A DNA stretch of 64,000 nt from an uncultured Candidatus Saccharibacteria bacterium. Its GTDB lineage: Bacteria; Patescibacteriota; Minisyncoccia; Phycocordibacterales; JAKFXT01. The stretch's first letter is position 1. Each line of letters opens with the position of its first letter. The position numbers and the translations under genes were made by a program. The stretch spans positions 6,326 to 70,325 of the forward strand of contig CAZIPS010000002.1 in NCBI GenBank assembly GCA_964541455.1, written 5' to 3'. Under the pieces are notes generated by a model, which did no database searches, was not told the origin of the DNA, and was given only the letters and a program-made list of their open reading frames with translations. Below are positions 1-41,305 of this stretch, piece after piece.

Positions 1-87
1 AAGGAAATACACAAAACGCTTGGCTTGGCGTGGGCCAATGCCGGGGAAATCGCGAAACTTTGAAGTGAGGGCATCAAGAGCGGACAT
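1..87 (-). CDS. recR: recombination protein RecR, N-terminal fragment (continues beyond the window start)
   Basis: Minus-strand ATG at 87 translates to MSALDALTSKFRDFPGIGPRQAKRFVYFL, matching the RecR N-terminal HhH 'LPGIGPK.A.R.A..LL' signature; the ORF runs off the window edge. Confidence 0.55.
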   Translation of the reverse strand, partial: MSALDALTSKFRDFPGIGPRQAKRFVYFL

Positions 88-104
88 GGCAGTGGAATAG
101 GTCT

Positions 105-1550: not shown

Positions 1551-1649
1551 TAGAAGTATTCTACCATGCTCTAAAAAGGGGGAGTGAAGGGGATTTAGGA
1601 GAGATTCGGGGAAAGACTGTGTATAAAGAGAGGGGTTCTGGGGAGGGTA

Positions 1650-1678
1650 TTGCTAAAAGTAGTTTTTTGTTATATAAT
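1650..1678 (+). promoter_or_regulatory. sigma70-like promoter TTGCTA-N17-TATAAT upstream of GC-rich cassette 1
   Basis: TTGCTA at 1650-1655, 17-nt spacer, TATAAT at 1673-1678; spacer contains AGTTTTTTG; 22/29 positions identical to the module at 19618-19646. Confidence 0.4.
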
Positions 1679-1736
1679 AAAGTTCGGTAAGTTTTTTCGA
1701 TTAATTTTTTTGGCCTATGGGCCGAGGAGGTATGGG

Positions 1737-2039
1737 ATGTACAATCCCGACAATGCCAATCCCGACAGGGATACGACCCCGATTGCTCACGTGGAGCGGC
1801 TGGGGGACATCATCCACAGCATGCTCGGGGCGAGGATTGTGTATCGCCCTTGGCAGCTCGCAGGACCTTCTGAGCAGAACGAAATCCTGCTGCAGAAGGC
1901 AGGCGAAATCTGCGTGGTCACCGTGAAAGCGGGAGATCGCCGGCAGGCTTTCGAGGTGAGCAACCTCGGGGCGCAGTTCCTGGCGCTGGTGAAGGTCCTG
2001 AGCCACCAGACCGGGTTCGAGTACCGCGAAGTATTCTGA
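1737..2039 (+). CDS. hypothetical protein, GC-rich cassette 1 (100 aa, MYNPDNANPDRDTTPIAHVERLGDIIHSML...)
   Basis: ATG at 1737 lies 6 nt after GAGGAGG (1724-1730); about 60% GC in a roughly 40% GC neighbourhood; stop lies 16 nt before a hairpin terminator; no family recognised. Confidence 0.55.
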   Translation: MYNPDNANPDRDTTPIAHVERLGDIIHSMLGARIVYRPWQLAGPSEQNEILLQKAGEICVVTVKAGDRRQAFEVSNLGAQFLALVKVLSHQTGFEYREVF

Positions 2040-2054
2040 GGCGGTACTCGGGCG

Positions 2055-2086
2055 AGCGTGCGCAGCGATGCGCACGCTTTTTTTAT
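2055..2086 (+). terminator. intrinsic terminator of cassette 1
   Basis: 9-bp GC stem AGCGTGCGC/GCGCACGCT with 6-nt loop, followed by TTTTTTTATTT; the T-run overlaps the cysS stop codon. Confidence 0.6.
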
Positions 2087-3459
2087 TTCTTACTAACTTT
2101 TACTCCGTCCGGAGTATCATCGATATGATAGCCAAGGTTTGCTATTTCGGTGCGAAGCATGTCAGAGCGGGCAAAGTCTTTCTTTTCGCGCGCCACCTCA
2201 CGTTCTTTGAGAAGGTTTTGTACGGCAATGGGGATTTCAATACTTTCTTCCTCTATTTTTTCATCAAGTCGTAATCCAAGCACTTCATCGAATTTTAAAA
2301 TAGTTGCTTTCTTGTCGGCATCAGTAATGTCTGATTTCAAGACTTCAAATATAAGCGCAAGCGCTTGCGGGGTTCCCAAGTCATCGTTAATGAAAGAAGT
2401 GAATTGGTTGAGGAAATTACTATCTACTTTTCCATCCTCTGGCATCTGCCATAGTGCACGAATAATATTTTTCCTAGCGATACCAGCTGCATTTACTGCC
2501 TCCCAGCTAAAATTCATTGGACTTCTATAGTGAGTGGTGAGTAGTAAGTAACGGTAGACAAGTGGGACATCTCCCTTTTGTACAAAATCTACTAGCGTAA
2601 TAAAGTTCTCACCACTTTTTGCCATTTTATCCTCACCAACGTTTAGATGGGCATTGTGAAGCCAGTAGTTTACATATTTTTTATCATTGGCTTTTTCTGA
2701 TTGGGCAATCTCGTTATTGTGATGTACTGGGATATGGTCGATGCCACCAGTATGAATATCGAATGGTTGTCCTAGGTATTTTTCACTCATAGCAGAACAC
2801 TCTATGTGCCACCCCGGAAACCCTTTACCCCACGGAGCATCATAGCCAAGTTCGGCATTAAATTTCCAAAGGGCGAAGTCGCGCGGGTTTTTCTTTTCAG
2901 CGTTTAGTCCAATACGAGAATGTTCATCATTAGTACTTACTGCACCACCAAGCTCACCGTATGAGGGGAAGCTTTGGGTGTCAAAATATACCCCATCGCT
3001 TGTTGTGTAGGTAGCACCTTTGTCCACTAGCTTTTGAATAAGTTCGATATCTTCTTTGATATGGTCACTTGCAAAAGGGAAGTGGTGAGGTGTCTCAATA
3101 TTTAGTTGTTGTAAGTCTTCCTTAAATTTTTCAAAATAAAAATTGGCTATTTCGCGCATGGCTTCAAGCGTCATGGGTTTACCTTCACGTTTTAGTGCAC
3201 GGGTCATTTTATCATCGCCATCATCCCCATCACTTGAAAGATGTCCTATATCAGTAACATTTATTACTTGAGTTACTTTGTAAGTGTTGAACTCAAGGGT
3301 ACGGCGAAGTATGTCAGCAAACACATAAGCCCTTAGGTTACCAATGTGGGCATAATTGTAGACGGTGGGGCCACAGTTATACATACGCACTTCACCTTCT
3401 TTTATGGGGACAAACTCCTCCTTTTGCTTGGTAAGGGTATTATAGAAAAAAAGCTTCAT
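2083..3459 (-). CDS. cysS: cysteinyl-tRNA synthetase
   Basis: 458 aa; class I HIGH motif (YAHIGNLRAY) and KMSKS (KMAKSGENF); CysRS-like fold throughout. Confidence 0.9.
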   Translation of the reverse strand: MKLFFYNTLTKQKEEFVPIKEGEVRMYNCGPTVYNYAHIGNLRAYVFADILRRTLEFNTYKVTQVINVTDIGHLSSDGDDGDDKMTRALKREGKPMTLEAMREIANFYFEKFKEDLQQLNIETPHHFPFASDHIKEDIELIQKLVDKGATYTTSDGVYFDTQSFPSYGELGGAVSTNDEHSRIGLNAEKKNPRDFALWKFNAELGYDAPWGKGFPGWHIECSAMSEKYLGQPFDIHTGGIDHIPVHHNNEIAQSEKANDKKYVNYWLHNAHLNVGEDKMAKSGENFITLVDFVQKGDVPLVYRYLLLTTHYRSPMNFSWEAVNAAGIARKNIIRALWQMPEDGKVDSNFLNQFTSFINDDLGTPQALALIFEVLKSDITDADKKATILKFDEVLGLRLDEKIEEESIEIPIAVQNLLKEREVAREKKDFARSDMLRTEIANLGYHIDDTPDGVKVSKK

Positions 3460-3496
3460 GCTCTAGAGTGTATCTTAAAACAGTAACCTTGCACAA

Positions 3497-4411
3497 CTAG
3501 AGCCAATTCTTGTGTTTAAAGTAGGTAAACATAAGAATAGTGATACCTATCATAATGCCGATAATCTCGAAAAATCCATACGGACTCCCCACAATAGGGG
3601 TGATGGTGGTATTCATACCAAACACTCCTGCGATTAAGGAAAGAGGGAGCATGATGAATGAGATAAGCGCTAAGACCCGCATAGTTTCGTTCTGTTTAGT
3701 TGAAAGGAGGGAGTCGTTTGTTGCACGAAGCTCATTTAAAGTGTCAGTATTTGCTTCAATAGCGCTCTGTACCCGCGAATAAGAGCCAAGGATAGCTTGT
3801 ATGTAGTAGTTAAAATCTTCGCCAAAAAATTTACGTACAGCAAGTTCAAGTGAGGCGAGCACTTCATCGTGTAGTGAGAGTGATTGCTTGAATTGCAAAA
3901 TTTCCCGCGCGACTTTGGAGAGTTCAAAGACCATCTGGCGTTCATTGCCTAAGAAAATACGGTTCTCAATAATCTTAAGGCGATCGGTGACATAGTCGAG
4001 TTCATGAGTGAGTGACTTATATAGTTTCTTGATCATGTGGAAGAAAATGAAGCCCGCATGGTCGCCTAAACTTTCTTTTTCGAGGATCGTGTTTACTTCA
4101 AATACTTTGCCGAATTTATGTAGGGCATCTATTGAGTCGTAGTGGGTAGTAATCAGAAAATTTTTACCAATGACAAAGTCGATCTCCTGATTTTGGTCAT
4201 CGCCATGGGAATGATGGAGGGCGGGGAAGTGGAGGATAAGGTAGATATAGTCTTTGTAGAGATCAACTTTTGGTTTGAGGCTCGGGGTCATAAGGTCTTC
4301 TGCGACGCGCGGATCAAGAGCATAGCGGCCCATGAGTGTACGCACCTCTTCAAGTGAAGGAGAGGTGAGGTCGATCCATGTTAAATCTTTATTTTTGTAC
4401 TCTTTAATCAT
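3497..4411 (-). CDS. corA: CorA-family magnesium/cobalt transporter
   Basis: 304 aa; C-terminal two TM helices with the GMN motif (VFGMNTT). Confidence 0.8.
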   Translation of the reverse strand: MIKEYKNKDLTWIDLTSPSLEEVRTLMGRYALDPRVAEDLMTPSLKPKVDLYKDYIYLILHFPALHHSHGDDQNQEIDFVIGKNFLITTHYDSIDALHKFGKVFEVNTILEKESLGDHAGFIFFHMIKKLYKSLTHELDYVTDRLKIIENRIFLGNERQMVFELSKVAREILQFKQSLSLHDEVLASLELAVRKFFGEDFNYYIQAILGSYSRVQSAIEANTDTLNELRATNDSLLSTKQNETMRVLALISFIMLPLSLIAGVFGMNTTITPIVGSPYGFFEIIGIMIGITILMFTYFKHKNWL

Positions 4412-4505
4412 CCGTGTAATGTAGTGTTCTACCCATTATATAGAAGGAGCTTCTTGTTGGTAAAGGGACTGTTCTGTATAATGCGCTATATCTTTTCTTT
4501 TTTTC

Positions 4506-5780
4506 ATGTCACCTAAAACTCATTTTAAATTATATGTGTTGCCGACCATTTTGGCCGGTCTTTTAATTGCCGGCACTTTTTCGCTCGGTGTGTATATCGG
4601 CAGTCGTCACAGTGTGAGTGTTACAGTGCCGAGTCTTACTACTTCAGATGGACAAAAGGTTGATATAGATGATTTTTGGAAGGCATGGAGGATCCTTAAT
4701 GAAAAGTTTGTGGGAGACAGTGTGCCCAAAGATCAGGACAAGGTCTATGGGGCTATTGCGGGACTCGCTGCTTCGTATAAGGACTCCTATACTGTGTTCT
4801 TTCCTCCTGTTGAAGCAAAGTCATTTAATGAACAGGTGAGTGGGGCGTTTGAAGGAGTGGGGATGGAGGTTGATATAAAAAATGGCGTACTTACGGTGAT
4901 TGCCCCTATTAAGGATGCTCCGGCTGATAAGGCAGGAATGCTTCCGGGGGATCATATTTTAAAGATTGATGGGAAGGTAACGCTTGGGATGGCAGTTGAA
5001 GATGCAGTTAGGCTTATCAAAGGTAAAAAGGGAACAACAGTAGTGTTGAATATTACACGTTCAGGCAAAAAAGATCCTTTCGATGTCTCGATTGTGCGCG
5101 ACAAAATTGATATCCCTTCTCTTAAAAGCGAGATGCGTAAAGATGGAACATATGTGATAAGTATCGCTACGTTTTCTGCACCATCATATATTCAGTTCCG
5201 CGAAGCGTTGCGTAAGTTTGTTGAAACAAAAAGTGACAGGCTTATCATTGATTTGCGCGGCAACCCTGGTGGATATCTTGAGGCGGCAGTTGATATTGCG
5301 AGTTGGTTCTTGCCACAAGGGGATGTAGTGGTGAGTGAGGATTTCGGGAAAAAGCACGATCCAATTTACCATCGAAGTACTGGGTACAACATTTTTAACG
5401 ATAAATTGAAACTCATCATTTTGATTAATGGTGGTTCTGCATCAGCTTCAGAAATCCTTTCAGGAGCGCTCCATGATCATGGCAAGGCACGGTTGTTGGG
5501 GGAGAAGAGTTTCGGAAAAGGGTCAGTGCAGGAGTTGGTGCCAATTACGAGCGACACGTCACTTAAGGTTACGATTGCTCGCTGGCTTACCCCAAATGGT
5601 ACTTCAATTTCACATCAAGGTATTGTGCCAGATATTGTAGTACCTATGACACTCGACGATTATAAGAACAAGGGGGATATCCAAATGGAAAAAGCAGCTG
5701 AAATACTGCGCCAAGAAACGGCTACCTCATCAACAGCCTATGTGTTGAACGCCCCGCAGTTCACAGTAACTTCCCATTAG
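4506..5780 (+). CDS. S41 C-terminal processing (tail-specific) peptidase with PDZ domain
   Basis: 424 aa; N-terminal TM anchor, PDZ (GMLPGDHILKIDGK), S41 catalytic region (IDLRGNPGGYL, GGSASASEI, K dyad). Confidence 0.85.
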   Translation: MSPKTHFKLYVLPTILAGLLIAGTFSLGVYIGSRHSVSVTVPSLTTSDGQKVDIDDFWKAWRILNEKFVGDSVPKDQDKVYGAIAGLAASYKDSYTVFFPPVEAKSFNEQVSGAFEGVGMEVDIKNGVLTVIAPIKDAPADKAGMLPGDHILKIDGKVTLGMAVEDAVRLIKGKKGTTVVLNITRSGKKDPFDVSIVRDKIDIPSLKSEMRKDGTYVISIATFSAPSYIQFREALRKFVETKSDRLIIDLRGNPGGYLEAAVDIASWFLPQGDVVVSEDFGKKHDPIYHRSTGYNIFNDKLKLIILINGGSASASEILSGALHDHGKARLLGEKSFGKGSVQELVPITSDTSLKVTIARWLTPNGTSISHQGIVPDIVVPMTLDDYKNKGDIQMEKAAEILRQETATSSTAYVLNAPQFTVTSH

Positions 5781-5846
5781 TGAGGCGTGACAGGACTACC
5801 TGAATAAGGTAGTATCCTCTTATTATTATCTTTACGTACATTCACT

Positions 5847-6290
5847 ATGAAAGTTGTATTTCTACAAGATGTTGCGCGTGTCGGACGTAAGTACGATGTA
5901 AAGGAAGTTTCTTCTGGCTATGCTTCAAATTTCTTGTTTCCTCGTAAGCTTGCGGTAGTAGCAAGCCCTGAAATGGTAGCAAAAGTTGAAGAAAAAAGAG
6001 CCAAGGAGCTCGATATGCGCAAAATGCAGGATGATCTTCTCATAAAGAGCCTCGAGGCGCTTAAGGAAGTAACGGTTACCTTAAAAGAGAAGGCTAATGA
6101 AGAGGGGCATTTATATGCAAAGATTCGCAATGAGGATGTCGTTGCAGCCCTTAAAGAGCAGACAGGCATTGAGTTACAGCCAGCCTTGCTCACAAACACA
6201 GATCCTCTTAAGGCAGTTGGTGAGTATGAGATGGAGGTGCTCGTTCAAGATAAAAAAGCGCATTTTAAAGTGGTTGTTGAAGCACTGTAG
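5847..6290 (+). CDS. rplI: 50S ribosomal protein L9
   Basis: 147 aa; MKVVFLQDVARVGRKYDVKEVSSGYASNFLFPRKLA is the L9 N-terminal signature. Confidence 0.9.
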   Translation: MKVVFLQDVARVGRKYDVKEVSSGYASNFLFPRKLAVVASPEMVAKVEEKRAKELDMRKMQDDLLIKSLEALKEVTVTLKEKANEEGHLYAKIRNEDVVAALKEQTGIELQPALLTNTDPLKAVGEYEMEVLVQDKKAHFKVVVEAL

Positions 6291-6311
6291 GAATAGACAA
6301 AAAAAATGTAA

Positions 6312-6345
6312 CAAAAACCCTCTGTGTACAGAGGGTTTTTGTTTT
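6312..6345. terminator. bidirectional intrinsic terminator between rplI and rpmA
   Basis: AAAACCCTCTGTGTACAGAGGGTTTTT palindrome with A-run before and T-run after. Confidence 0.6.
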
Positions 6346-6350
6346 AGAGC

Positions 6351-6623
6351 TTATTTTACGTGAGCTACTTTTTTGAGGATGGTTTTGCCGTCAAAGTGTG
6401 TCTTGCGAGTAGTGCCATAGGAAACAGTTCCTTCTTTGAGTGCATAAAGCGTATGGTCTTTTCCAATACCCACATTTAAGCCAGGAAGGATGCGTGTGCC
6501 ACGTTGGCGGATGATAATAGCACCAGCCTTTGCTTTTTCGCCAGCATAAAGTTTAGTACCCAAATACTGGGCGTTTGAGTCTGTCAGGTTTTTGGCGGAA
6601 CCTCCCGCTTTTCGTGTTGCCAT
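6351..6623 (-). CDS. rpmA: 50S ribosomal protein L27
   Basis: 90 aa; [22 protein letters not shown] matches the L27 N-terminal signature. Confidence 0.9.
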
Positions 6624-6700
6624 ACGTTAGTTTTGTAGTCGGCTAGGAGTGGTTTATAGTTATAAGAGGAATTAGGTAATTCCAGACCATCCCAGCAACA

Positions 6701-7177
6701 ATGGAGACAACTATAAAGGAAAGTAGGAAAAATAGCAAGGTACCCTTTGGGGAAAGTTTGCTTTTGACCAATAAGCCAAAAAATGGCTTAACAGCAGGCT
6801 TTTTGAGGGTTTCTGAGGAGGTGTATATCGCCCTTATTATCACCTTGGTGGCTTTTTTAGGGTTTGGCCTTGGGAGATTTTCGATGGTGCAAAAAAGCAG
6901 TAGTAAGACCCAAGTCAAGCTTATTCAGGGAGGGGGAGGGGAAGCAGCCCTTGTGGCAGATAAAGGTGTTTCTGTGGTGGATACGGGGACTACAGGAGGG
7001 GAGGTGTCCACTACTACGCTTAGCGCAACAGAAGTGGTGGCTTCAAAGCAGGGGACAAAATATCACTACACATGGTGCCCCGGGGCGTCTAAGATAAGCC
7101 CAAGTAACAAAATTTCTTTTACTTCTGAGGCTGCTGCGATTGTCGCAGGGTATACGAAAGCAAGTAACTGCAAATAA
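6701..7177 (+). CDS. membrane-anchored protein with C-terminal Ada-like Zn-binding-type Cys motif domain
   Basis: 158 aa; one TM helix; Gly/Thr-rich linker; C-terminal YHYTWCPG...NKISFTSEAAAIVAGYTKASNC resembles the Ada N-terminal metal-binding pattern (C-x3-C...F.S..EA..AG(F/Y)..C..C); the N-terminal start is uncertain. Confidence 0.5.
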   Translation: METTIKESRKNSKVPFGESLLLTNKPKNGLTAGFLRVSEEVYIALIITLVAFLGFGLGRFSMVQKSSSKTQVKLIQGGGGEAALVADKGVSVVDTGTTGGEVSTTTLSATEVVASKQGTKYHYTWCPGASKISPSNKISFTSEAAAIVAGYTKASNCK

Positions 7178-7202
7178 GTAGTACTTCATATATACTAAGC
7201 AC

Positions 7203-7802
7203 ATGATTGCACTTGATATAGAAGCAAGCGGAGTAGATTATCAGAAAAATTCGATTATTAGTATCGGAGCACTTGATACTGAACATCCTACCAATCGGTT
7301 TTATGGTGAATGTCGTGTCTGGGAAGGCTCGCATATTTCAGAGGATACTATGGAGTTTCTTCAGATGACTGAAGCACAGTTTCGTGATTCTACTAAACAA
7401 ACTGAAGCCGATCTTTTGCTTACTTTTCTTTCGTGGAGTGAAGGGGTGCGGGACAGAACGTTTTTAGGTCAGAATGTTTCTTTTGATCGAGATTATCTAA
7501 AGGCGGCATGTGATCGAATACATCATGAATGGAATTTTGCGCACCGCACTGTTGATACACATTCACTTTGTTACATGCACATGATTAAGCGAGGACTTAC
7601 TCCGCCTTTTAATGAAGAGCATCATCGTACCGCACTTAATCTCGATAGTATTCTTCTTTATTGTGGGATCCCAGAAGAACCACAGCCACATAATGCACTT
7701 ACCGGTGCACTATCTCACGCTGAAGTGGCACATCGGTTACTCTATGATAAGAAGTTTTTGCCTGAATTTGATCAATTTGAAATTCCTTGGCAGAAGGCGT
7801 AA
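7203..7802 (+). CDS. DEDDh-family 3'-5' exonuclease (DnaQ/oligoribonuclease-like)
   Basis: 199 aa; Exo I motif IALDIEASG, Exo III-like H...D (HNALTGALSHAEVAH). Confidence 0.7.
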   Translation: MIALDIEASGVDYQKNSIISIGALDTEHPTNRFYGECRVWEGSHISEDTMEFLQMTEAQFRDSTKQTEADLLLTFLSWSEGVRDRTFLGQNVSFDRDYLKAACDRIHHEWNFAHRTVDTHSLCYMHMIKRGLTPPFNEEHHRTALNLDSILLYCGIPEEPQPHNALTGALSHAEVAHRLLYDKKFLPEFDQFEIPWQKA

Positions 7803-7814
7803 GATGCTTTTTAT

Positions 7815-8027
7815 ATGGAACATAATGTAACCAAGAAATTATACCTCTCTGCTACTGACCGGAAGATTGCAGGAGTGTTTGGCGGTTTGGCGGCTTACTT
7901 TAATATTGATTCAACGATACTCCGCTTAGGTTTTCTCCTTGTGCTTGTGTGTACAGCATTTTTCCCCATGACTATCTTTTATCTACTTGCTTGGGCAGTG
8001 ATCCCAGAAGAGCCTATTCATAAGTAG
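7815..8027 (+). CDS. PspC-domain membrane protein
   Basis: 70 aa; LYLSATDRKIAGVFGGLAAYFNIDSTILRLGF matches the PspC domain, followed by a TM helix. Confidence 0.7.
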   Translation: MEHNVTKKLYLSATDRKIAGVFGGLAAYFNIDSTILRLGFLLVLVCTAFFPMTIFYLLAWAVIPEEPIHK

Positions 8028-8042
8028 GTAGTTTTGAATATT

Positions 8043-8070
8043 GTCGGGGTATAGTGTATCGGTAACACAC
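8043..8070 (+). repeat. 28-bp exact duplicate of the tRNA-Pro 5' end (-2 to +26) located 144 bp upstream of the gene
   Basis: GTCGGGGTATAGTGTATCGGTAACACAC is identical to 8185-8212; it diverges at the anticodon stem. Confidence 0.7.
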
Positions 8071-8186
8071 ATGATGGGGGTCGAGCAAGACACAATAAAG
8101 TAAACAGTTTTACTTTATTATGCTAGTGAGACAAATTTTCTCATATGGTTTACCATGAGAAAATTTCGGTTTTTTGGAGGCATCGT

Positions 8187-8258
8187 CGGGGTATAGTGTA
8201 TCGGTAACACACGTGCATGGGGTGCACGTAACGCTGGGTTCGACTCCCAGTACCCCGA
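8187..8258 (+). tRNA. tRNA-Pro (anticodon GGG)
   Basis: Manual fold: 7-bp acceptor CGGGGTA/TACCCCG (C1:G72, A73), D-arm GTGT/ACAC, anticodon stem CGTGC/GCACG with loop ATGGGGT (U33, GGG, G37), variable loop TAACG, T-arm CTGGG-TTCGACT-CCCAG; no encoded CCA. Confidence 0.8.
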
Positions 8259-8287
8259 CGATGGCCCTAAAAAACGTAACTAAAAAC

Positions 8288-8308
8288 TCCCAGTATCCCG
8301 ACAATGTT
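8288..8308 (+). repeat. 21-bp near-duplicate (2 mismatches) of the tRNA-Pro 3' end located 30 bp downstream of the gene
   Basis: ACTCCCAGTATCCCGACAATG versus the tRNA 3' ACTCCCAGTACCCCGACGATG. Confidence 0.6.
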
Positions 8309-8375
8309 TCCAACAGCTCACAAAAGTAAAAAGCCGGGGTTAGCCAGCTTTTTACTTTTGTGAGACGAGTTCTAT

Positions 8376-8864
8376 TTACATCCCCATGGTATTACCCATG
8401 TTGTTTGCCATCTTGCTATCCATGCTCATCATTTCTGAGCCATGCTTAGCAACAAGAAGAATACCACCAACAATAGCAAGATTCTTAAGTACGCTTACCC
8501 AGTCAACTTGGAAAGGAACGCCAGCTGGAGCAAGAACACTTGTGTGTACAAGTACGGTTGCAATCACTGTGAAGATAACGAGCATCCATGCACCAATGCG
8601 AGTTTTATATCCAACAAGAATAGAAAGCGCGCCACCAACTTCAAAAATAACGGCAAGTCCAGCCCATACCATACCAGGAAGCACATGGAGGGCTGTCCCT
8701 AGGTTAGCTGAAAGCTGACTAAAGCCAACGATTTTTTGCCAGCCGGCAAAAAGAAATACTATAGCAATAAAGACGCGAGCAATAACAGGAGCCCACATAT
8801 CTACTTTATTACTCCACATCTGCAACTTTTCCTTCATATAGATACAATAAAATTTACTATTCAA
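8376..8864 (-). CDS. DoxX-family membrane protein
   Basis: 162 aa; WAPVIARVFIAIVFLFAGWQKI and 4 TM helices typical of DoxX; the true start may be the internal Met at 8837; 14-bp-stem hairpin (8310-8349) downstream. Confidence 0.65.
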   Translation of the reverse strand: MNSKFYCIYMKEKLQMWSNKVDMWAPVIARVFIAIVFLFAGWQKIVGFSQLSANLGTALHVLPGMVWAGLAVIFEVGGALSILVGYKTRIGAWMLVIFTVIATVLVHTSVLAPAGVPFQVDWVSVLKNLAIVGGILLVAKHGSEMMSMDSKMANNMGNTMGM

Positions 8865-8992
8865 TAATGGAGCTATTATACTCTAAAATACGGTTTTTGG
8901 GGGGAGGGGAGTGGATAAGCAATAAAAGGCCACAGCACTGCTACTTTTGTCGGTAATGATTAGTTATAAGCATAGTATGTTTACAAGATGAG

Positions 8993-9397
8993 GTGGGTAT
9001 GTTTGAGCGTATACTGCTCTTAACGCGTTCTTTTGGGTTGGCAAAACCACTGGGTCTTGCGCTTGCGAGGTGGGGAGTTGATAGCCTTGTGTACATTAGC
9101 GACCCAGCACTCTTTGAACCCAGCATTCTTGAAACGGAGGATTTCACTACTATTATTGTCGGTAAAAGTTTTCAAGGGGACTGCGAGGATACGGCTAAAT
9201 GGGTTCGCCACATTCGTTCACAGTATGGGAACCCAATCATTGGGGTGAATGATGTACTTAGCGTGTTTGGTGACATGCGTTTGCTTCGGGTAGCGGGATG
9301 TAACTATCTTTCTCAAACCGCGGATCCCAACATGCAATTACGAGAAGTTCTGGACTTTGTTTGGGAGATTGAATCAAACCTTCCACTTCTGCGCTAG
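8993..9397 (+). CDS. hypothetical protein (possible degenerate receiver-like fold)
   Basis: 134 aa; alternating beta/alpha pattern (RILLLT, LVYISDP, TIIVGKS, IIGVND) but no phospho-acceptor Asp; no confident family. Confidence 0.45.
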   Translation: MGMFERILLLTRSFGLAKPLGLALARWGVDSLVYISDPALFEPSILETEDFTTIIVGKSFQGDCEDTAKWVRHIRSQYGNPIIGVNDVLSVFGDMRLLRVAGCNYLSQTADPNMQLREVLDFVWEIESNLPLLR

Positions 9398-9405
9398 CAT
9401 CTCTT

Positions 9406-9437
9406 ACCCCCGCCTTAGGCGGGGGTCGTCTTTTGTG
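9406..9437 (+). terminator. intrinsic terminator
   Basis: ACCCCCGCC-TTAG-GCGGGGGT stem-loop followed by CGTCTTTTGTG. Confidence 0.6.
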
Positions 9438-9464
9438 GGAACCTCTAATGGTATACTTTTCTTC

Positions 9465-9983
9465 ATGGCATATACAAAAAAGGTAGCAAAGAAGGGGCTA
9501 AAAGCTACAGGATATTGGCTCATGAAATCAGAGCCACATGAATACTCGTTTGAAGATTTAGAAAAGAGTAAAAACGGGGGGAGGTGGGATGGGGTACGGA
9601 ACTATCAGGCACGGAATTTCCTTCGGGATATGAAAATTGGCGATAAAGTCCTTTTTTACTACTCAAGCATAAAAATGCCCTTGATTGTGGGCACCGCCCT
9701 CATAAAAGGAGCTCCATACCCAGACCCCACACAGTTTGATAAAAAGAGCCCATATTATGACCCAAAAGCCACTAAGGAGCGTTTTATATGGGTTTCTAGG
9801 GATTTGGTACCTGTGGATAACTTTTTAAGCGCTAAGGAGGGTAGGGGAGTAACCCTTTCTGAACTCCGGACAAATAAGAAGCTTTCCGCTTTGAGGCTCC
9901 TAGCTCCTGGGAACCGGCTTTCGGTGATGCCGGTAAGCAAAGCCCACTATGAGGAGGTTTTGAGAATGGCCAAGGGCAAATAG
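9465..9983 (+). CDS. EVE (PUA-like) domain protein
   Basis: 172 aa from the internal Met; YWLMKSEPHEYSFEDL...WDGVRNYQARNFLRDMKIGDKVLFYYS is the EVE-domain signature; the upstream in-frame extension of the six-frame ORF has no homology. Confidence 0.75.
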   Translation: MAYTKKVAKKGLKATGYWLMKSEPHEYSFEDLEKSKNGGRWDGVRNYQARNFLRDMKIGDKVLFYYSSIKMPLIVGTALIKGAPYPDPTQFDKKSPYYDPKATKERFIWVSRDLVPVDNFLSAKEGRGVTLSELRTNKKLSALRLLAPGNRLSVMPVSKAHYEEVLRMAKGK

Positions 9984-10083
9984 CCCCCCCTCTTTTAGTT
10001 CGAACTCCTATCCAATAGTGGCCTTTAGGTGGATCGACTTGCCATATTTTTGATACTCCAGCTTAGTAAAAAAACGTGAAACC

Positions 10084-10106
10084 ATGGCTCTATAGAGCCA
10101 TTTTAT
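10084..10106 (+). terminator. putative intrinsic terminator
   Basis: ATGGCTC-TATA-GAGCCAT followed by TTTTAT. Confidence 0.4.
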
Positions 10107-10142
10107 ATCTATTGACACCCCCCTAAAATCCTTGTCTAACCA

Positions 10143-10171
10143 TTGACAAAATAAAGCAAAGGTGATACAAT
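10143..10171 (+). promoter_or_regulatory. consensus sigma70-like promoter TTGACA-N17-TACAAT
   Basis: TTGACA 10143-10148, 17-nt spacer, TACAAT 10166-10171; drives the downstream lytic transglycosylase gene. Confidence 0.45.
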
Positions 10172-10411
10172 AATAACAAATCAGAGTATACCTCTGGTTT
10201 TTCCGTTAAGGGCTGAACAACAGCAGTTATGGAAAAAGCTTAAGTCTTGAGGGCCTAGTGCCGCATCCTTGAGTACTCTTCTCGGAAATTACGAGCTAAT
10301 CATTGGCTTATTTTAGGAATAGCAACAGGAATCCTTCTTTTTATCTCAAATACTACCAACAACAGCGCCGAGGCTGCACTACAACCAGTAGTTGCTACAA
10401 CCTCAGCTAAG

Positions 10412-10825
10412 GTGGTAAACAAGGATAAAACCCCAGTACGTTTACAAAAAAGCAAAACAGAAGTAGTGACAACTGCTAGTAGCACAGAAGAAACAGTTCG
10501 TGCTTACTTTGAGGATATTCCTCAACTTATAGAGGTTGCTCGCTGTGAGTCCCGTTTTCGCCAAACCGATAAAGATGGAAGCATCTTCCGTGGTGAAATG
10601 AATAACAAGGACGTGGGGGTGATGCAGATCAATGAGTTCTATCACGCCGACACTGCTAAAAAACTTGGGTTTGATATCTATACGCTTTCAGGAAATATGG
10701 CCTATGCTCGTTATATCTACGAGAAACAAGGTATAGCTCCGTGGAGCTCATCATTCCCATGTTGGAATAAAAAAGTTTCGCAAATCGAAGCTTTAGGAAA
10801 CGTAGAGCTTGCGCTCAACAAATAA
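10412..10825 (+). CDS. SLT-domain lytic transglycosylase (lysozyme-like), secreted
   Basis: Catalytic E-S ... GVMQIN motif (ARCESRFRQ...GVMQINEFYH); the six-frame start is GTG at 10412, but an in-frame signal peptide (RKLRANHWLILGIATGILLFISNTTNNSAEAA) lies upstream back to a stop at 10256 with no ATG/GTG/TTG, so the true start is probably non-canonical or there is an indel. Confidence 0.7.
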   Translation: MVNKDKTPVRLQKSKTEVVTTASSTEETVRAYFEDIPQLIEVARCESRFRQTDKDGSIFRGEMNNKDVGVMQINEFYHADTAKKLGFDIYTLSGNMAYARYIYEKQGIAPWSSSFPCWNKKVSQIEALGNVELALNK

Positions 10826-10834
10826 CATAAAACA

Positions 10835-10867
10835 AAACCGCTAGAAAATTCTAGCGGTTTTGTTTTT
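10835..10867 (+). terminator. intrinsic terminator
   Basis: AAACCGCTAG-AAAATT-CTAGCGGTTT followed by a T-run. Confidence 0.65.
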
Positions 10868-11213
10868 GAGAGAAGAAGGTGCGGAAGAAAGTAGGTGTAT
10901 AGGTAGAGGTGGGGAGTGTCTAATCTTACAAGGAGCTTCCTATGGATAATGTTCGCACAATATATCTTTTGCGAAAATAGCACAGAGGGTGGAAGGCGCT
11001 GTTTGAGTTATCCACTTCCCCCTCGATTGGAATTTTTTTGGTTGAAGTTGGCTGTTTGTTTGGCTTGTAATTATTTATTTAGTGGTACATAGGTACCACT
11101 TCCCCAGACTTTGAGCCAAAAGTTTTAAGCGCTTTCGATCAGCTGTTAATATTAAAAATGAGTACTTTTATTTTTCCCAAAAACAGGGGAGTCTCTCCCC
11201 TACTCCTTTGTAA

Positions 11214-11247
11214 AGTATAAAAAACAGGCAAGCCATTCGGCTTGCCT
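11214..11247 (-). terminator. intrinsic terminator of cassette 2
   Basis: AGGCAAGCC-ATTC-GGCTTGCCT hairpin; on the minus strand it is followed by TTTTTTAT; a second weaker hairpin GGGGAG-TCT-CTCCCC lies at 11184-11198. Confidence 0.6.
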
Positions 11248-11269
11248 TGGTGTGCAGTGTGGCGCGCGT

Positions 11270-11647
11270 TCACCTTCTTGTGCGCGTGGAGCCGTACTCC
11301 ATGGTGTCTTTGAGTAGGTTCCAAAGCAGCTCTTCCGCCCTTTCCATTTCTGGAAGCGTCGGGGAATCGGCGAGAGCGGCACGGAGCGTCCTAATGAGTG
11401 CCATGATGATCTCACTTCTTTCGTTTAACGTGGCGTTCCTAGGGATCTTCCCTACACGCTCCAGTTGTTCCTCGAAGACTGCGAGGGAATCACTTTCACC
11501 ACGCAGAATGATTGAATACATGACGATAAGTCTGCGTGCGTCTCGGTTGTCAGCGGGGACAGTTGTGTGGCCATCCTTTTTCCGGTGTAGCCTGAAAAGG
11601 GCTCCGGTGATGGTCTTGGCATGCTCTATGGTCATGCTCATGGACAT
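11270..11647 (-). CDS. hypothetical protein, GC-rich cassette 2 (125 aa, MSMSMTIEHAKTITGALFRLHRKKDGH...)
   Basis: Minus-strand ATG at 11647 preceded by AGGAG (6-nt spacing); GC-rich; terminator 22 nt past the stop; contains an R-x4-H dipeptide pattern (RKKDGH) but no confident family. Confidence 0.55.
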   Translation of the reverse strand: MSMSMTIEHAKTITGALFRLHRKKDGHTTVPADNRDARRLIVMYSIILRGESDSLAVFEEQLERVGKIPRNATLNERSEIIMALIRTLRAALADSPTLPEMERAEELLWNLLKDTMEYGSTRTRR

Positions 11648-11711
11648 AACGAACTCCTACAGTAAAGTGGGCTGCAGCTTTTATAACACAAAATAAAGGA
11701 AAATGAAGGGG

Positions 11712-12035
11712 CTAGTTTTCTGGAATCTTTATAGTTGGGGGATCGATCGAAGTGGAACGGCCAGCTTTTATATCTTTGAGTGCTTGAATAAAAGGTGTCC
11801 AGATAAGGTCAATAAACACATCATTGTAAAGATAGACTGAAGGCTTTTTAAGGTAATGATCCCAAAGGTTAACTGTAAGCTCTTTAACGTAGCCGAAGTT
11901 GCTCTGACCAGTTGGTGAATCGACAATGCCTTTAAGGTTAATACCGAAGTAGCTAATCGAAAGCAGTGCAATAATTAAAAAAACCAAAAGACCAATTATT
12001 CCTTGGTTTTTGCGCGGAGTTGATACACTTTTCAT
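11712..12035 (-). CDS. hypothetical small membrane-anchored protein
   Basis: 107 aa; N-terminal TM helix (GIIGLLVFLIIALLSISYF). Confidence 0.45.
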   Translation of the reverse strand: MKSVSTPRKNQGIIGLLVFLIIALLSISYFGINLKGIVDSPTGQSNFGYVKELTVNLWDHYLKKPSVYLYNDVFIDLIWTPFIQALKDIKAGRSTSIDPPTIKIPEN

Positions 12036-12092: not shown

Positions 12093-13412
12093 TTACAGAT
12101 AAAGCATGGGGTTAATGTATGCCTTGTAGTCGGCGACAGGTACTGTATATGTGCCCGCGCATACTTTACTTTTTAGGTTCACTACACGTACTCCTTGAGA
12201 AGCAAAAACACCAAAGTGTAAATGTGGTCCTGTAACATAGCCTGTCGCGCCTGAATAGCCGATAAGATCCCCAGTAGTTACTTGTTGGCCAGCAGTTGCC
12301 TTTATAAGTGAAAGGTGTGCATACACAGTTGAGAGTCCATTGTTGTGTTTTATAAATACCCATTTCCCGTACGAAGCTCCTGGGCACACAGTGTCAGTGT
12401 TTCCAGTGTCTACAACAGTGCCTGAAAGTGCAGCGTATACTGGGGTGCCAATTGAAGCTTTAAGGTCAATACCATTATGACCTTTCCCACTATAGGCTCC
12501 GGCATGTGCGCGGGCAAATTCAGTATCTCCAAAAAGTTGGGTAGTAACAAATTCACTTAAAGGTGAGTTTAGTATTTTTGAATTTGGAGCTGGGTAACTT
12601 GTTGGGTCAATAGCAAGCTTGAGCTGTGATTCATAATCGTCAAGTTCTTTTTGCAGAGCAAGTCGGCGTGATTCACTCGCCGCTACCATTTTCTTGTAGT
12701 TGGCTTCAGTATTTTTGGTTTGTTTCAAGAGCTCGTTAGTTTGTGCCTTGTTGGCTTCAACGATTTTCTTCTGATCGTTTAACTGTGCCCGCAAATAGAT
12801 AAGTTCTTTTTTCTTACTTTCAGTGTTTGCTTTGGTCGTAGTAAGATCTGCTTTTGCAGAAGCTAGGGTTTCAATTTGGGTTTTGATACCCCCCTGTAAT
12901 TCTGCTAACTGGTTTTCAGTATTCCACGCTTCCCCTACGTTTTTTTTGCGCAGCAAAATTTCTACAAAAGGACTTGTATCTCCTTCTTGTAGTCGAGTAA
13001 GTGATGCTTTAAGTCCGTCTCGCTGCACGGTGATAGCTTCTTCTTTGTTTAAAATTTCACCAGAAAGACTTTCAATTACAAGGGAGGCTGCGTCTATCTT
13101 GTTTTGCGTGAGGGCAACGTCCGAAGAAAGTTTCTTACGGGTTAACTCTAATACAGAAAGTGCACTCTGGAGGGTCTTGCCTTGAGTATTAGCTTTCTGC
13201 ATTTCAATTTGATACGTTTTTATGTCACGCTCAAGTTGAGCAATGTCTCTGTTTTTTGCATCAATCTTTGCACGCAAGTCATCAGCTGCCGTACTTGCTG
13301 GAGCGGTGTCACTTGTACTTTGTGCTAGGAGATATAGCGGGGTGAGAAAAAAAAGAAGCGCTACTGTGATAGGTGTAAGATGAGAAATTGTTTTTAGCGA
13401 AAAAAAACGCAT
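12093..13412 (-). CDS. M23-family murein endopeptidase with N-terminal coiled coil (EnvC/MepM-like)
   Basis: 439 aa; signal/TM, long Q/K/E-rich coiled coil, C-terminal LytM domain (GHNGIDLKASIGTPVYA, HLHFGV). Confidence 0.8.
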   Translation of the reverse strand: MRFFSLKTISHLTPITVALLFFLTPLYLLAQSTSDTAPASTAADDLRAKIDAKNRDIAQLERDIKTYQIEMQKANTQGKTLQSALSVLELTRKKLSSDVALTQNKIDAASLVIESLSGEILNKEEAITVQRDGLKASLTRLQEGDTSPFVEILLRKKNVGEAWNTENQLAELQGGIKTQIETLASAKADLTTTKANTESKKKELIYLRAQLNDQKKIVEANKAQTNELLKQTKNTEANYKKMVAASESRRLALQKELDDYESQLKLAIDPTSYPAPNSKILNSPLSEFVTTQLFGDTEFARAHAGAYSGKGHNGIDLKASIGTPVYAALSGTVVDTGNTDTVCPGASYGKWVFIKHNNGLSTVYAHLSLIKATAGQQVTTGDLIGYSGATGYVTGPHLHFGVFASQGVRVVNLKSKVCAGTYTVPVADYKAYINPMLYL

Positions 13413-13425
13413 AGAAACAATGTGA

Positions 13426-14832
13426 TTATGCTTTCGGACTAATAAGTGAGAGCGTACTTTTAATGCGAGTTAACGTTTCTTGTTTTCCTAAAATTTCACT
13501 TAAGGTGAACGGATCAGGAGACTTGTCGCGTCCTGAAAGGAGGAAACGTAGCGGCCAGAGCACCTCGGCCCGTCCAACTTCTGTTGCATAGTCCCAAAGA
13601 GCACCTTTAACAGCTTCTTTATTCCATGAAGTTTCTGAAAGTGGATCAAGAAGCACAATTACTTTTTGCAAATGTGTTGCGACAGTATCAAGTGTTATGG
13701 ACTCCCCCTTTTTTGCTTTTGGAATAAGCGCTTCAAGGGTAAAGGTGGGGGTCGCAAAAAAGTATGTAAAGTCACCACTTTCTGCAAGCTCGGCAACATC
13801 TTTTAGTGTGCTAATGCGTTCTTTGATATCAGAAAGTGCCTTGGTGAGGCGCTCATCACTCCATTGCGGGAGTGCTTTGAATTGCTCTGGAAGGAAAGAA
13901 AGGACCTGCTTTTTAAATTCTTGATCAGGCATTCTTTTGATATGTTCACGGTTGAACCAGAGAAGTTTTTCGAGGTCAAAAATAGCTCCTGATTTTTGAA
14001 TACGTTCAAGCGAGAAGGCTTCAATAAGTTCTTCGCGCGTAAAAATTTCTTGGGTAGTGCCGGGGTTCCACCCAAGAAGGGCAAGATAGTTAATAAAGGC
14101 ATCAGGCAATATTCCCATATTCTTATATTCTGAAACGGGGATAGAGCCATTACGCTTACTTAACTTAGAGCGGTCAGCGCCTAGGATAAAGGGGAAATGG
14201 CAGTAAGTGGGACGAGGAGCACCGAGCGCTTCTTGAATTAAAATTTGACGAGGAGTGTTGTAGATACCGTCTTCCCCGCGGATAATGTGTGTGATCCCCA
14301 TTTCAAAATCATCTATAACAACAGCAAGATGGTAGAGTGGCTCCTCGATGGTGCGTGCAATAACGAAGTCACCAAGTTCGGTCGTGTCGACACTAATGTC
14401 ACCACGAAGAAGGTCAGTAAAGGTAATTACTTTGTTAGGGTTTTTAAAGCGGATAACTCTTTTCTCGTTACTGACTACCTTTACCTCATCGTCATCTTCC
14501 TCCTCACTTCCCTCTCGTGCATTGATGACCGTGCTTTCTTCTGAGAAATAAGCTTTTCCTTCCGCAATGAGTTTTCCGATGTGTTTTTGATAAATAAGCG
14601 TGCGCTCAGATTGATGGTGTACTTCATTAAAGGTAAGTCCTAGCCACTCAAGCGTTTCAAAAATATTCTGCTCGTATTCTTTTTTTGAACGCGCCCTATC
14701 AGTGTCTTCCCAGCGAAGAATTACCTTCCCGTTATGTTTCTTGGCAAAAAGATAGTTGAGGAGTGCAGTTTTAGCGGTTCCTACATGTATGAGGCCGGTG
14801 GGGCTTGGAGGAAAACGTGTGATGATATTCAT
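13426..14832 (-). CDS. gltX: glutamyl-tRNA synthetase
   Basis: 468 aa; RFPPSPTGLIHVGTAKTALLNYLFAKK (HIGH-like), ILRWEDTD, KLSKRNG (KMSKS). Confidence 0.9.
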   Translation of the reverse strand: MNIITRFPPSPTGLIHVGTAKTALLNYLFAKKHNGKVILRWEDTDRARSKKEYEQNIFETLEWLGLTFNEVHHQSERTLIYQKHIGKLIAEGKAYFSEESTVINAREGSEEEDDDEVKVVSNEKRVIRFKNPNKVITFTDLLRGDISVDTTELGDFVIARTIEEPLYHLAVVIDDFEMGITHIIRGEDGIYNTPRQILIQEALGAPRPTYCHFPFILGADRSKLSKRNGSIPVSEYKNMGILPDAFINYLALLGWNPGTTQEIFTREELIEAFSLERIQKSGAIFDLEKLLWFNREHIKRMPDQEFKKQVLSFLPEQFKALPQWSDERLTKALSDIKERISTLKDVAELAESGDFTYFFATPTFTLEALIPKAKKGESITLDTVATHLQKVIVLLDPLSETSWNKEAVKGALWDYATEVGRAEVLWPLRFLLSGRDKSPDPFTLSEILGKQETLTRIKSTLSLISPKA

Positions 14833-19617: not shown

Positions 19618-19646
19618 TTGCTAAAATGGATTTTTTGTCCTATAGT
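19618..19646 (+). promoter_or_regulatory. sigma70-like promoter TTGCTA-N17-TATAGT upstream of GC-rich cassette 3
   Basis: TTGCTAAAA-TGG-ATTTTTTGT-CC-TATAGT; same module as 1650-1678; a GGCGCGA/TCGCGCC hairpin at 19672-19694 lies in the 5'UTR. Confidence 0.4.
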
Positions 19647-19714
19647 GAAATTTGCTGTAAATTTTGGAAGGCGCGACCAATAAAATTCGCGCCACCACGG
19701 AAAAGGAGGGCCGC

Positions 19715-19978
19715 ATGGCCGCTGAAAAGGGCTGTTGTTGGACGCAGGGCGACAATCGTTGTGTTACGCTCTGCGAGGATGGGCACTGCCCAGGGGGGGA
19801 CGTTTGCGTAACGTCCCAGAGGCACAACGTCAACCACGTCGTTGACTACCCCTACCAGATCCTCCAAAGGGTCATGGAAGAGGGGCGGCCGGGACAGAAG
19901 ACGAAACACAGGCATACTGGGACGGGCGACGGAGACCGTTCTGTCTGGCAGGTGGGCGTCCCTGAAGCTTCATCGTGA
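19715..19978 (+). CDS. hypothetical Cys-rich small protein, GC-rich cassette 3 (87 aa, MAAEKGCCWTQGDNRCVTLCEDGHCPGGDVCVT...)
   Basis: ATG at 19715 lies 5 nt after AAGGAGG; 7 Cys in the first 32 residues; no signal peptide; GC-rich; terminator directly after the stop. Confidence 0.5.
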   Translation: MAAEKGCCWTQGDNRCVTLCEDGHCPGGDVCVTSQRHNVNHVVDYPYQILQRVMEEGRPGQKTKHRHTGTGDGDRSVWQVGVPEASS

Positions 19979-19993
19979 ATGCCCTTCGGGCAA

Positions 19994-40656: not shown

Positions 40657-41270
40657 TATGAAGCGAGGAATTCTTTGAGGACGGCAAAATCAGTTTTTAA
40701 CGTATCTTTAGTCTTATTGTTATACACGGCAACTGCTGGATGGTAAAGTGGCACAATGGTTATTTCTCCATAGTTCGTTTTTGCTTTAAATGTCTTCCCA
40801 TGTAGTTCGCTGATGGGGCCTAAGTCTTTAAAGAGACTAAACCGCTCCATAATGTACTTCATGGAATAGCGACCAAGCGTTGCTAAAACCTTGGGTTCAA
40901 TAATGTTTATTTGTCTATCAAGGAAGGGGCCATATGCAGTTATCTCCTCCGGTGTTGGGTCGCGATTAAGAGGAGGTCTATCTTTCGCTATATTGGTTAC
41001 ATACACACTTTCTCGCGGTAGGTTTATGGAGGCGAGGAGTTCATCGAGAATCTTACCGGAGGCACCACAAAAAGGTTTCCCAGTAAGTGCTTCGTTTTTT
41101 CCAGGAGCTTCACCGATAAACATAATTGAAGCATTGAGATCACCTTCCCCTATGACTGGACAGGCGTTATGTTTAGTTCGTTCAGCATAAAGTGGGGATG
41201 TTGTCAGTGCAAAAACTTCGTCTCGAAGTTCAGTCATAAGTACTTGTTTTTGCTTATTACGAGGCGCCAT
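40656..41270 (-). CDS. uracil-DNA glycosylase, family 4
   Basis: 204 aa; motif A GEAPGKNE, Fe-S Cys ligands, motif B (LYHPAV). Confidence 0.85.
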   Translation of the reverse strand: MAPRNKQKQVLMTELRDEVFALTTSPLYAERTKHNACPVIGEGDLNASIMFIGEAPGKNEALTGKPFCGASGKILDELLASINLPRESVYVTNIAKDRPPLNRDPTPEEITAYGPFLDRQINIIEPKVLATLGRYSMKYIMERFSLFKDLGPISELHGKTFKAKTNYGEITIVPLYHPAVAVYNNKTKDTLKTDFAVLKEFLAS

Positions 41271-41273
41271 TAA

Positions 41274-41305
41274 AAGTAGTATAGCAAAATATAAAACCCG
41301 TCTTC
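41274..41305 (-). terminator. intrinsic terminator of cassette 4
   Basis: AACCCGTC-TTCAC-GACGGGTT hairpin followed (minus strand) by TTTTATATTTTGC. Confidence 0.55.

Follow-up and report, generated by a model that had tools for sequence, protein, structure and literature searches.

What is a single GC-rich open reading frame doing between two convergent, native transcription units? The question arises in the window (the whole stretch of 64,000 nucleotides analyzed here), which comes from an ultra-small CPR bacterium (Patescibacteria), has a GC content of 42.8% and carries core genes for DnaB, CysRS, GluRS, MurG, FtsW, MraY, ribosomal proteins and ATP synthase. We found that the segment, here called cassette 2, is probably an ordinary but clean moron-like horizontally acquired orphan gene. 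Its horizontal origin is very likely, and we are nearly as confident that it is a real gene of the donor that can still be translated. With more reserve we favor the full explanation, that is, that cassette 2 is a complete, acquired single-gene unit that was inserted after the split from a sister species and is transcribed, translated and functional.

The sequence-only reading had described a cassette located in a convergent intergenic region, with a GC-rich ORF for a 125-aa protein at 11270-11647 on the minus strand and an AGGAG-N6-ATG start. The sequence itself, the GC profile, GC3 and the neighboring genes agreed with this description on every point, and they support a discrete unit of a single gene whose composition is foreign. 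The Shine-Dalgarno sequence AGGAG (11654-11658, minus strand) is spaced 6 nt from the first ATG and overlaps an in-frame TAG that is located 12 nt upstream of that ATG, so the ORF cannot extend further (start region on the minus strand, gTAGGAGttcgttATG). The protein begins with MSMSM and there are alternating ATGs at 11647, 11641 and 11635; translation from the third of these would give a product of 121 aa. The encoded protein (14.3 kDa, pI 9.2) has no hydrophobic or transmembrane segment and is of ordinary composition, rich in L, R, E, A and T, with one Trp and no Cys. It is predicted to be soluble, basic and all-helical.

The GC content of the ORF is ~53% (0.50-0.56 across the ORF) compared to ~41% in the flanks (0.36-0.42). 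That is, cassette 2 is GC-richer than its host by 11-12 points. By codon position, GC is 0.53/0.44/0.62. The GC3 of 0.62 compares to 0.381 +/- 0.058 in the native genes of at least 150 aa, a difference of +4.1 sd.

The genes on both sides of cassette 2 are native. Directly upstream on the minus strand, across a gap of 64 nt, is the gene for a 107-aa protein with a single transmembrane segment (11712-12035), and upstream of that is the gene for an M23 peptidase (12093-13412, minus strand; 439 aa, PF01551), the first of a conserved pair. The 107-aa gene has native GC3 and its homologs are found directly after the M23 peptidase gene in three relatives (L003, L004 and L017), which bears out the earlier placement of cassette 2 downstream of a native membrane-protein gene. 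On the other side, a gene for a 137-aa SLT/lysozyme-like protein (10412-10825, plus strand; 10412-10866 including its terminator, a perfect 18-bp hairpin at 10829-10866) converges on cassette 2. A homolog of this gene is in the same convergent position in L017 and in a contig of the sister species (L018).

Co-transcription of the 107-aa gene and cassette 2, which the sequence-only reading had raised, is plausible because a scan detected no terminator in the 64 nt between them. There is also a candidate extended -10 element, TGtTATAAA (TGTTATAAA), at 11680-11688 on the minus strand. It was recognized by eye, lies ~30 nt upstream of the ATG and has a poor -35. A consensus scan of the minus strand found no two-hexamer promoter for cassette 2; CPR promoters are uncharacterized.

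Two tandem terminator hairpins had been noticed downstream of the ORF. Both are present, and they differ in origin. The proximal hairpin is the intrinsic terminator of cassette 2 itself (11218-11247, minus strand). It begins 22 nt past the stop codon, within the GC-rich segment, and consists of a 9-bp stem with 6 GC pairs and the loop GAAT, found in a terminator scan at 11247-11226 as GGCAAGCC-GAAT-GGCTTGCC and followed by the T-run TGTTTTTT. The distal hairpin (AGGGGAG-AGA-CTCCCCT followed by GTTTTT, 11201-11185) is in DNA that is shared with the sister species. Alignment with the L018 sequence identifies it as part of an ancestral, bidirectional hairpin, AAAAACAGGGGAGTCTCTCCCCT (11179-11205, both strands). 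In the sister species the identical sequence ends the neighboring minus-strand gene. The distal hairpin is therefore the resident terminator, serving whichever minus-strand gene adjoins the region.

Comparison with the sister species also indicates where cassette 2 was inserted. This species was found by chance, via another GC-rich cassette of the window (cassette 1), and is represented by GCA_964385825.1 and by JGI and Logan contigs (L018-L023). It has ~75% nucleotide identity to the window and is collinear with it from 5 to 10837. After the SLT-like gene, the two species share a native non-coding block (10947-11044; 73% identity overall, with an identical stretch of 25 nt, ATGTTCGCACAATATATCTTTTGCG) and then, ~130 nt further, the ancestral hairpin (shared over 11179-11201), which in the sister species is directly past the stop codon of a minus-strand gene for a 373-aa AT-rich membrane protein (L018). 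Because the non-coding block is conserved, the DNA between the SLT terminator and cassette 2 is resident and not part of the insert. Despite sharing the SLT-like gene, the non-coding block and the hairpin, the sister species (L018-L022) does not have the cassette-2 ORF. Since the hairpin and the block are ancestral, cassette 2 was inserted between the native M23/107-aa operon and the old terminator of that operon, and the alignment places the 3' insertion junction within 11202-11225.

Neither of two protein searches, in both of which the sister species is well represented, found a homolog of intermediate identity to the product of cassette 2. Thus, cassette 2 either entered after the split of the two species or was lost in the sister lineage. 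We did not see a clean empty site; in the sister species the far side of the slot is taken up by another gene, at which the locus examined ends.

The order of genes around the slot is conserved: M23 peptidase, small single-transmembrane protein, slot, and convergent SLT-like gene. The slot itself holds different genes in every relative examined. In L017 it holds a methyltransferase gene of native GC content, with the convergent SLT-like gene also kept, and in L003 it holds two orphan ORFs of elevated GC content that are unrelated to cassette 2. Scans of genomes and metagenomes with the M23 peptidase yielded the same species, relatives with up to 48% identity over the full length, and the C-terminal fragment from L017 with 67% identity. 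Among species-representative genomes, the nearest homolog is from a Candidatus Paceibacterota MAG (48% identity).

One contig of the sister lineage gives a view of how foreign DNA may behave in this intergenic region. In L023, the 3' end of the SLT-like gene and a terminator of the type found in the window are followed immediately by a 54%-GC segment. Translated from its minus strand, this segment corresponds to a sugar ABC transporter permease of which only the N-terminal third is present, cut in frame at the native terminator; 99% of its 76 residues align with Rhizobium permeases, at 43% identity (E 4e-11). A relic of the fragment's last 22 nt is kept in the window (10868-10890, minus strand), which speaks for an earlier foreign insertion in this region; in L023 these nucleotides are the final in-frame codons (FFRTFFF) of the permease fragment. 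Thus, foreign GC-richer DNA has entered the intergenic region more than once, and at least once as a non-functional fragment.

There were no convincing flanking or shared repeats, att sites, target-site duplications or recombinase genes at cassette 2, and no integrase in the gene tables of the left 22 kb of the window. An 11-nt direct repeat (CAGCTTTTATA, at 11675 and 11762) and a 10-nt repeat (CCACTTCCCC, at 11012 and 11096) are within chance or unexplained.

The earlier description of the product as an unknown 125-aa protein also held: it has no homolog outside the species. Profile scans of the protein against Pfam, NCBIfam, PHROGs and PADLOC (E up to 10) found no family. A word-indexed search of 5.8 billion protein clusters returned three clusters with 98-100% identity, all of them alleles from the same species. 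An exhaustive phmmer search of 1.84 billion representatives returned the cluster of the protein itself and one other protein, P0005, a eukaryotic PARP14-like protein of 2955 aa with RRM repeats, twelve in tandem and nearly identical to one another. Each repeat is ~20% identical to the cassette-2 protein over ~55 residues; when the two sequences alone were compared by BLASTP, E was 0.001-0.012. We rejected this match as due to chance because the repetition inflates the summed score. The sole phmmer match in the PDB, IFT81, had an E of 0.85 and was also rejected. There was no match to cassette 2 in phage and plasmid genomes (tblastn) or in a scan of IMG/VR, and a scan of IMG/VR with cassettes 1 and 4 was likewise negative. 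Among about 15 billion known proteins, cassette 2 has no relative outside its own species. It is a strict species-restricted ORFan. AlphaFold2 run on the single sequence predicted five helices with low confidence (pLDDT 47), and a Foldseek comparison of this model to the PDB gave no match at E < 3, which is unsurprising for a model of such quality.

Cassette 2 is fixed in the species. Same-species contigs from independent metagenomes reach the slot (DRR685535, ERZ28655916, SRR12487046, ERZ724549, SRR32910815, ERZ27309396 and ERZ724532), and on every one of them cassette 2 is present and intact. Exact-protein look-ups with both flanking genes revealed no presence/absence polymorphism on the contigs reaching the slot.

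The alleles differ from one another in a way that hints at selection on the protein. Allele L007 has 9 nt differences from the window. Eight of these fall in a stretch of 27 nt, and four consecutive third positions are changed synonymously; the amino acid changes are R66K, L70P and N71S. Allele L024 has 5 differences within 16 nt, two of which are synonymous, and the changes L107V and N110A. Allele L008 differs by 1 nt, giving A16D. In total there are 15 nt differences, 7 synonymous in 88 sites and 8 non-synonymous in 287 sites, with no stops and no frameshifts. The resulting pN/pS is ~0.35 (binomial P ~0.04), a value calculated from 15 changes that are mostly in two clusters and are not independent. 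The two clusters probably represent only two recombination events, and the antisense frame gives an equal number of amino acid changes for the L007 allele. The lean toward synonymous changes is suggestive of selection at this level. We did not count the apparent over-conservation of the ORF in L001 (0 mismatches compared to an average of 2.7%); the whole region from 11 to 13 kb is a low-divergence mosaic block.

We considered whether cassette 2 might be passenger DNA, that is, a foreign piece carrying a small donor gene that has no effective expression, is unselected and will decay. We think this unlikely. The truncated and clearly non-functional permease fragment in the same intergenic region of L023, together with the 22-nt relic in the window, indicates that foreign DNA can persist in the slot without function, and this is the chief argument for passenger DNA. 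In addition, the length of the cassette-2 ORF is unexceptional for its GC content: dinucleotide shuffling of 11214-11700 gave longest open frames of 93 +/- 23 codons on average, so that length alone is within chance for such a composition. What argues for a gene is thus the Shine-Dalgarno sequence, the terminator, the amino acid composition and the tight boundaries, together with the population data. The absence of homologs everywhere we searched and the low-confidence predicted structure are also what passenger DNA would give. In contrast, the boundaries of the segment are trimmed almost exactly to a Shine-Dalgarno sequence, an ORF and a terminator. The ORF is intact in all strains reaching the slot, despite the strong deletion bias to be expected of a streamlined genome, and its polymorphisms lean synonymous. 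The analogous cassette 1 argues in the same direction. Its 100-aa product is 83% identical between two species with a dN/dS of 0.13, indicative of clear purifying selection, and its GC3 is 0.69-0.77 in the two species.

The 64 kb contain several orphan cassettes, and cassette 2 may belong to a set of at least five that are GC-rich and carry one gene each (1737-2039, 11270-11647, about 19640-19980, 56986-57618 and 58840-59055). Their number, the 64-nt spacing and the probable co-transcription with the 107-aa gene would all be compatible with cassette 2 being one half of a toxin-antitoxin or toxin-immunity pair, with either the 107-aa protein or another cassette as the partner. This is quite improbable. 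The 107-aa gene is native and is conserved beside the M23 peptidase gene in relatives that do not have cassette 2. The other cassettes are 9-47 kb distant. They are orphans too, and there is no similarity among them that would indicate paralogy or partnership, so the idea of a cognate partner among them did not bear fruit. Cassette 1 furthermore differs in evolutionary age; it is present in the sister species and cassette 2 is absent there.

It is also improbable, and slightly more so, that cassette 2 is a resident gene that arose de novo from native intergenic DNA or that diverged rapidly from a native gene. Its ORFan status is compatible with such an origin, and a minority of ORFans in E. 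coli arise in this way (PMC13012023). The composition of cassette 2 is, in contrast, far from that of both native coding and native intergenic DNA, and cassette 2 has a GC-rich terminator of its own. In addition, the segment is absent from the sister species, in which one flank of the insertion point is native intergenic DNA.

To the same small degree, the segment could be non-coding, a GC-rich structured RNA or another element in which the open frames are a product of composition. RNA genes are common among the GC-rich islands of AT-rich genomes, the length of the ORF is within chance, and there are long open frames on both strands. The open frame on the plus strand overlaps cassette 2 and has 149 codons. 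It is an antisense frame that shares its third positions with the cassette-2 ORF; its product is serine-rich and antisense-like, and its start would be a TTG inside the terminator stem. The minus frame stands apart from it: GC is periodic by codon position (GC3 > GC1 > GC2), and the pattern GC1 > GC2 is confined to the minus frame of the region. The Shine-Dalgarno sequence is optimally spaced, the terminator is directly after the stop codon, and one allele has four consecutive third-position substitutions. As an RNA, the region has a folding energy no better than that of shuffled sequences (z = -1.16), and neither the gathering mode of Rfam nor a search with E up to 1 returned a relevant family.

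The least probable explanation is that cassette 2 encodes a HEPN-like RNase toxin or abortive-infection effector with RKKDGH as its catalytic motif, as the sequence-only reading had hinted from the spacing of R22 and H27. The protein shares with HEPN-domain RNases (HEPN-MNT toxins and Abi proteins) a small size, a predicted helical content and one R-x4-H, and its slot is variable and horizontally acquired. RKKDGH (R22-x4-H27) is the only match to R-x4-6-H in the protein, but shuffled versions of the protein contain R-x4-H in 31% of cases and R-x4-6-H in 67%. HEPN domains have the R-x4-6-H motif where the last core helix begins, among the C-terminal helices at the junction of helix 3 and helix 4. 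In contrast, R22 and H27 are close to the N-terminus, and the low-confidence AlphaFold2 model puts them in a loop that follows its first helix. Searches of Pfam, NCBIfam, PADLOC and PHROGs (E up to 10) gave no profile match to HEPN, Abi or toxin families, and there was no HEPN domain among the phmmer matches or the fold matches in the PDB. We also found no adjacent antitoxin or MNT partner and no defense context. The neighbors are the conserved native membrane protein just upstream, the M23 peptidase and the SLT-like protein, and PADLOC returned nothing for the neighbors or for the other cassettes. The gene should not be annotated as HEPN or as a toxin.

Taken as an acquired single-gene unit, cassette 2 can be accommodated in the following scheme. 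The unit (~11218-11690, comprising ribosome-binding site, ORF and its own terminator) would have come from a GC-richer donor that is not represented among sampled genomes. Its insertion would postdate the divergence from the sister species and would have placed it past the stop codon of the M23/107-aa operon but before the operon's ancestral terminator hairpin. Transcription would most likely be by read-through from the operon, possibly with an additional contribution from the extended -10-like element of cassette 2 (11688-11680). Translation would start at the first ATG, from AGGAG-N6-ATG, and transcription would end at the hairpin of cassette 2, with the ancestral hairpin as a back-up. The product would be a basic, soluble and probably alpha-helical protein of 14 kDa with no recognizable catalytic motif. 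If functional, such a protein would most likely bind protein or nucleic acid and would be a small factor with an accessory, regulatory or immunity-type role, and not an enzyme. Any specific functional class that might be proposed for it is, at best, unlikely to be correct.

Cassette 2 resembles several kinds of known elements. In form it is closest to a phage moron. Phage morons, as described by Hendrix, Juhala and colleagues, are single genes of atypical composition with their own promoter and/or terminator that are found between resident genes of lambdoid prophages. Cassette 2 is likewise a one-gene unit of deviant composition with its own ribosome-binding site, terminator and candidate promoter, and it is located between two resident transcription units, neither of which is disrupted. 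In contrast to morons, it is in a neighborhood of cellular core genes (GluRS, MurG, M23 peptidase) and not in a prophage. We found no phage genes near cassette 2 and no matches to it in phage or viral collections. Integron cassettes are also compact, with a single ORF, foreign composition and little flanking DNA, but the cassettes in the window do not have an attC-like imperfect inverted repeat or a shared recombination site, and they are dispersed and not arrayed.

In kind, cassette 2 belongs with horizontally acquired, species-restricted ORFans. They are the majority class of ORFans in E. coli (uz-Zaman and Ochman 2026; PMC13012023), and cassette 2 is like them (PMC13012023; reviewed in PMC12315717) in being short and of atypical composition, with no homolog outside the species and an unsampled source. 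E. coli ORFans are described as typically AT-richer than their host (PMC3514957). Cassette 2 differs from E. coli ORFans in being GC-richer than its host, and in being fixed in the species rather than sporadic. Transfers of single genes into Patescibacteria have been documented, with detection based partly on homology to putative donors (Gios et al. 2025; PMC12455944). Cassette 2 would likewise have entered a streamlined CPR genome as a single gene, but it has no donor or homolog in any database that we searched.

What is unusual about cassette 2 is that it is GC-richer than its host and that the 64 kb contain several such cassettes. It is also a clean case: its insertion point is resolved to ~25 nt, because the resident terminator survives beside the imported one, and it is fixed in its species. 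The interest lies mainly in the collective pattern of the cassettes and not in cassette 2 alone. Each cassette may be lodged beside the 3' end of a core gene, and it is conceivable, although doubtful, that this, together with the truncated permease fragment in the related lineage, reflects systematic capture of GC-richer, possibly host-derived DNA at terminator-proximal sites. If so, the episymbiont takes up DNA, compact ORFans would keep a high GC3 for long periods, as cassette 1 does, and those that survive would be selected, lineage-specific factors for symbiosis or defense.

Much of what is unexplained in the coding capacity of CPR bacteria (Patescibacteria) consists of orphan genes, and genomes this small should not tolerate useless DNA. 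A set of orphans like the one described here would be suited to testing the intake of foreign DNA by CPR bacteria. Compact, GC-rich and apparently selected orphans may also be a reasonable place to search for lineage-specific functions in host interaction or defense.

We found that cassette 1, a GC-rich orphan of 100 aa encoded on the plus strand between dnaB and cysS (window 1737-2039), occupies the same site in the sister species (L018:10001-10303). The two copies are 83% identical at the amino acid level, with a dN/dS of 0.13 (window compared to L018), and a GC3 of 0.69-0.77 is held in genomes of ~42% GC. For cassette 1, dS was 0.67, well under that of the neighbouring cysS, in which synonymous sites were saturated (pS 0.77). 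This low value suggests either later spread of the cassette between lineages or constraint on its synonymous sites.

The window contains five additional segments that are outliers in GC3 or GC, all of them in intergenic slots. These include an ORF of ~91-104 aa of ambiguous strand (19640-19978), with a 2-nt indel at 19677 in the same-species strain contig L001; a 210-aa orphan on the minus strand (56986-57618) whose sole match, at 97%, is from JGI; and a 71-aa CxxC...CxxC zinc-ribbon orphan on the plus strand (58840-59055). An island of 63.5% GC (41189-41578) had no convincing ORF and no match in Rfam. The fifth outlier is at 37149-37409.

The intact gene for tRNA-Pro(GGG) (8187-8259) is flanked by partial copies, a 5' half (8043-8083) on one side and a 3' end (8289-8306) on the other. 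The acceptor-stem changes in the two outer pieces compensate each other (TGTCGGG and CCCGACA, compared to CGTCGGG and CCCGACG). An insertion of ~205 nt seems to have split an older tRNA-Pro copy and delivered the present one. The segment is also inverted relative to the sister species.

We also compared strains within the species. L001, which is ~97% identical to the window, has an additional AT-rich orphan gene of 172 aa between the PspC-like and Rv2179c-like genes (L001:13735-14455). This gene is absent from the window (corresponding site 7800-7815) and is a second kind of strain-variable single-gene insertion, one with native or AT-rich composition. Within cassette 2, the GC-rich 125-aa orphan, strain differences were tightly clustered: 8 in 27 nt in L007 (11424-11450) and 5 in 16 nt in L024 (11315-11330), with the surrounding sequence otherwise identical. 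Similar clusters were found in native genes, those for M23 and GluRS (e.g., 13834-13843). The pattern suggests recombination in short patches, the partners being more divergent strains so far absent from databases.

The native 107-aa membrane protein next to cassette 2 has a C-terminal extension of ~30 residues (11712-11800), and its homologs in relatives, of 67-81 aa, are without it. A perfect 11-nt direct repeat, CAGCTTTTATA, is present within the extension (11762-11772) and just upstream of the SD of cassette 2 (11675-11685). The repeat could be left over from the 5' junction of the cassette 2 insertion, or it may be due to chance.

A non-coding block in the cassette-2 intergenic region (10947-11044, notably 10953-10985) is conserved with the sister species and includes a stretch of 25 identical bases. 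Within it, a small hairpin (TTCGCA-N12-TGCGAA) precedes TTATCCACTTCCCC. The block, in which we found neither an ORF nor an Rfam match, could act as a regulatory site or encode a small RNA.

The slot has other occupants in other genomes. In the distant Paceibacterota relative L003, the M23/small-TM pair is followed by two ORFs of elevated GC (48-52%, compared to ~35%), encoding 128 aa (L003:6574-6960) and 138 aa (L003:7133-7549). Neither matched Pfam, PHROG or PADLOC, and neither was similar to cassette 2. In the sister species, the gene adjoining the shared terminator hairpin (L018:19748-20303, minus strand; 30% GC) encodes a protein of 373 aa with no match in Pfam and a hydrophobic segment that is probably membrane-spanning. 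This gene is a further occupant of orphan type in the variable region. The related-lineage contig L023 has a 54%-GC fragment (L023:11517-11764) of a sugar ABC transporter permease gene. The fragment covers the N-terminal third of the protein and ends, truncated, in frame at the terminator of the native SLT gene. Its final 22 nt (FFRTFF codons) persist in the window at 10868-10890. Based on this fragment and its remnant, foreign DNA has entered the cassette-2 intergenic region more than once.
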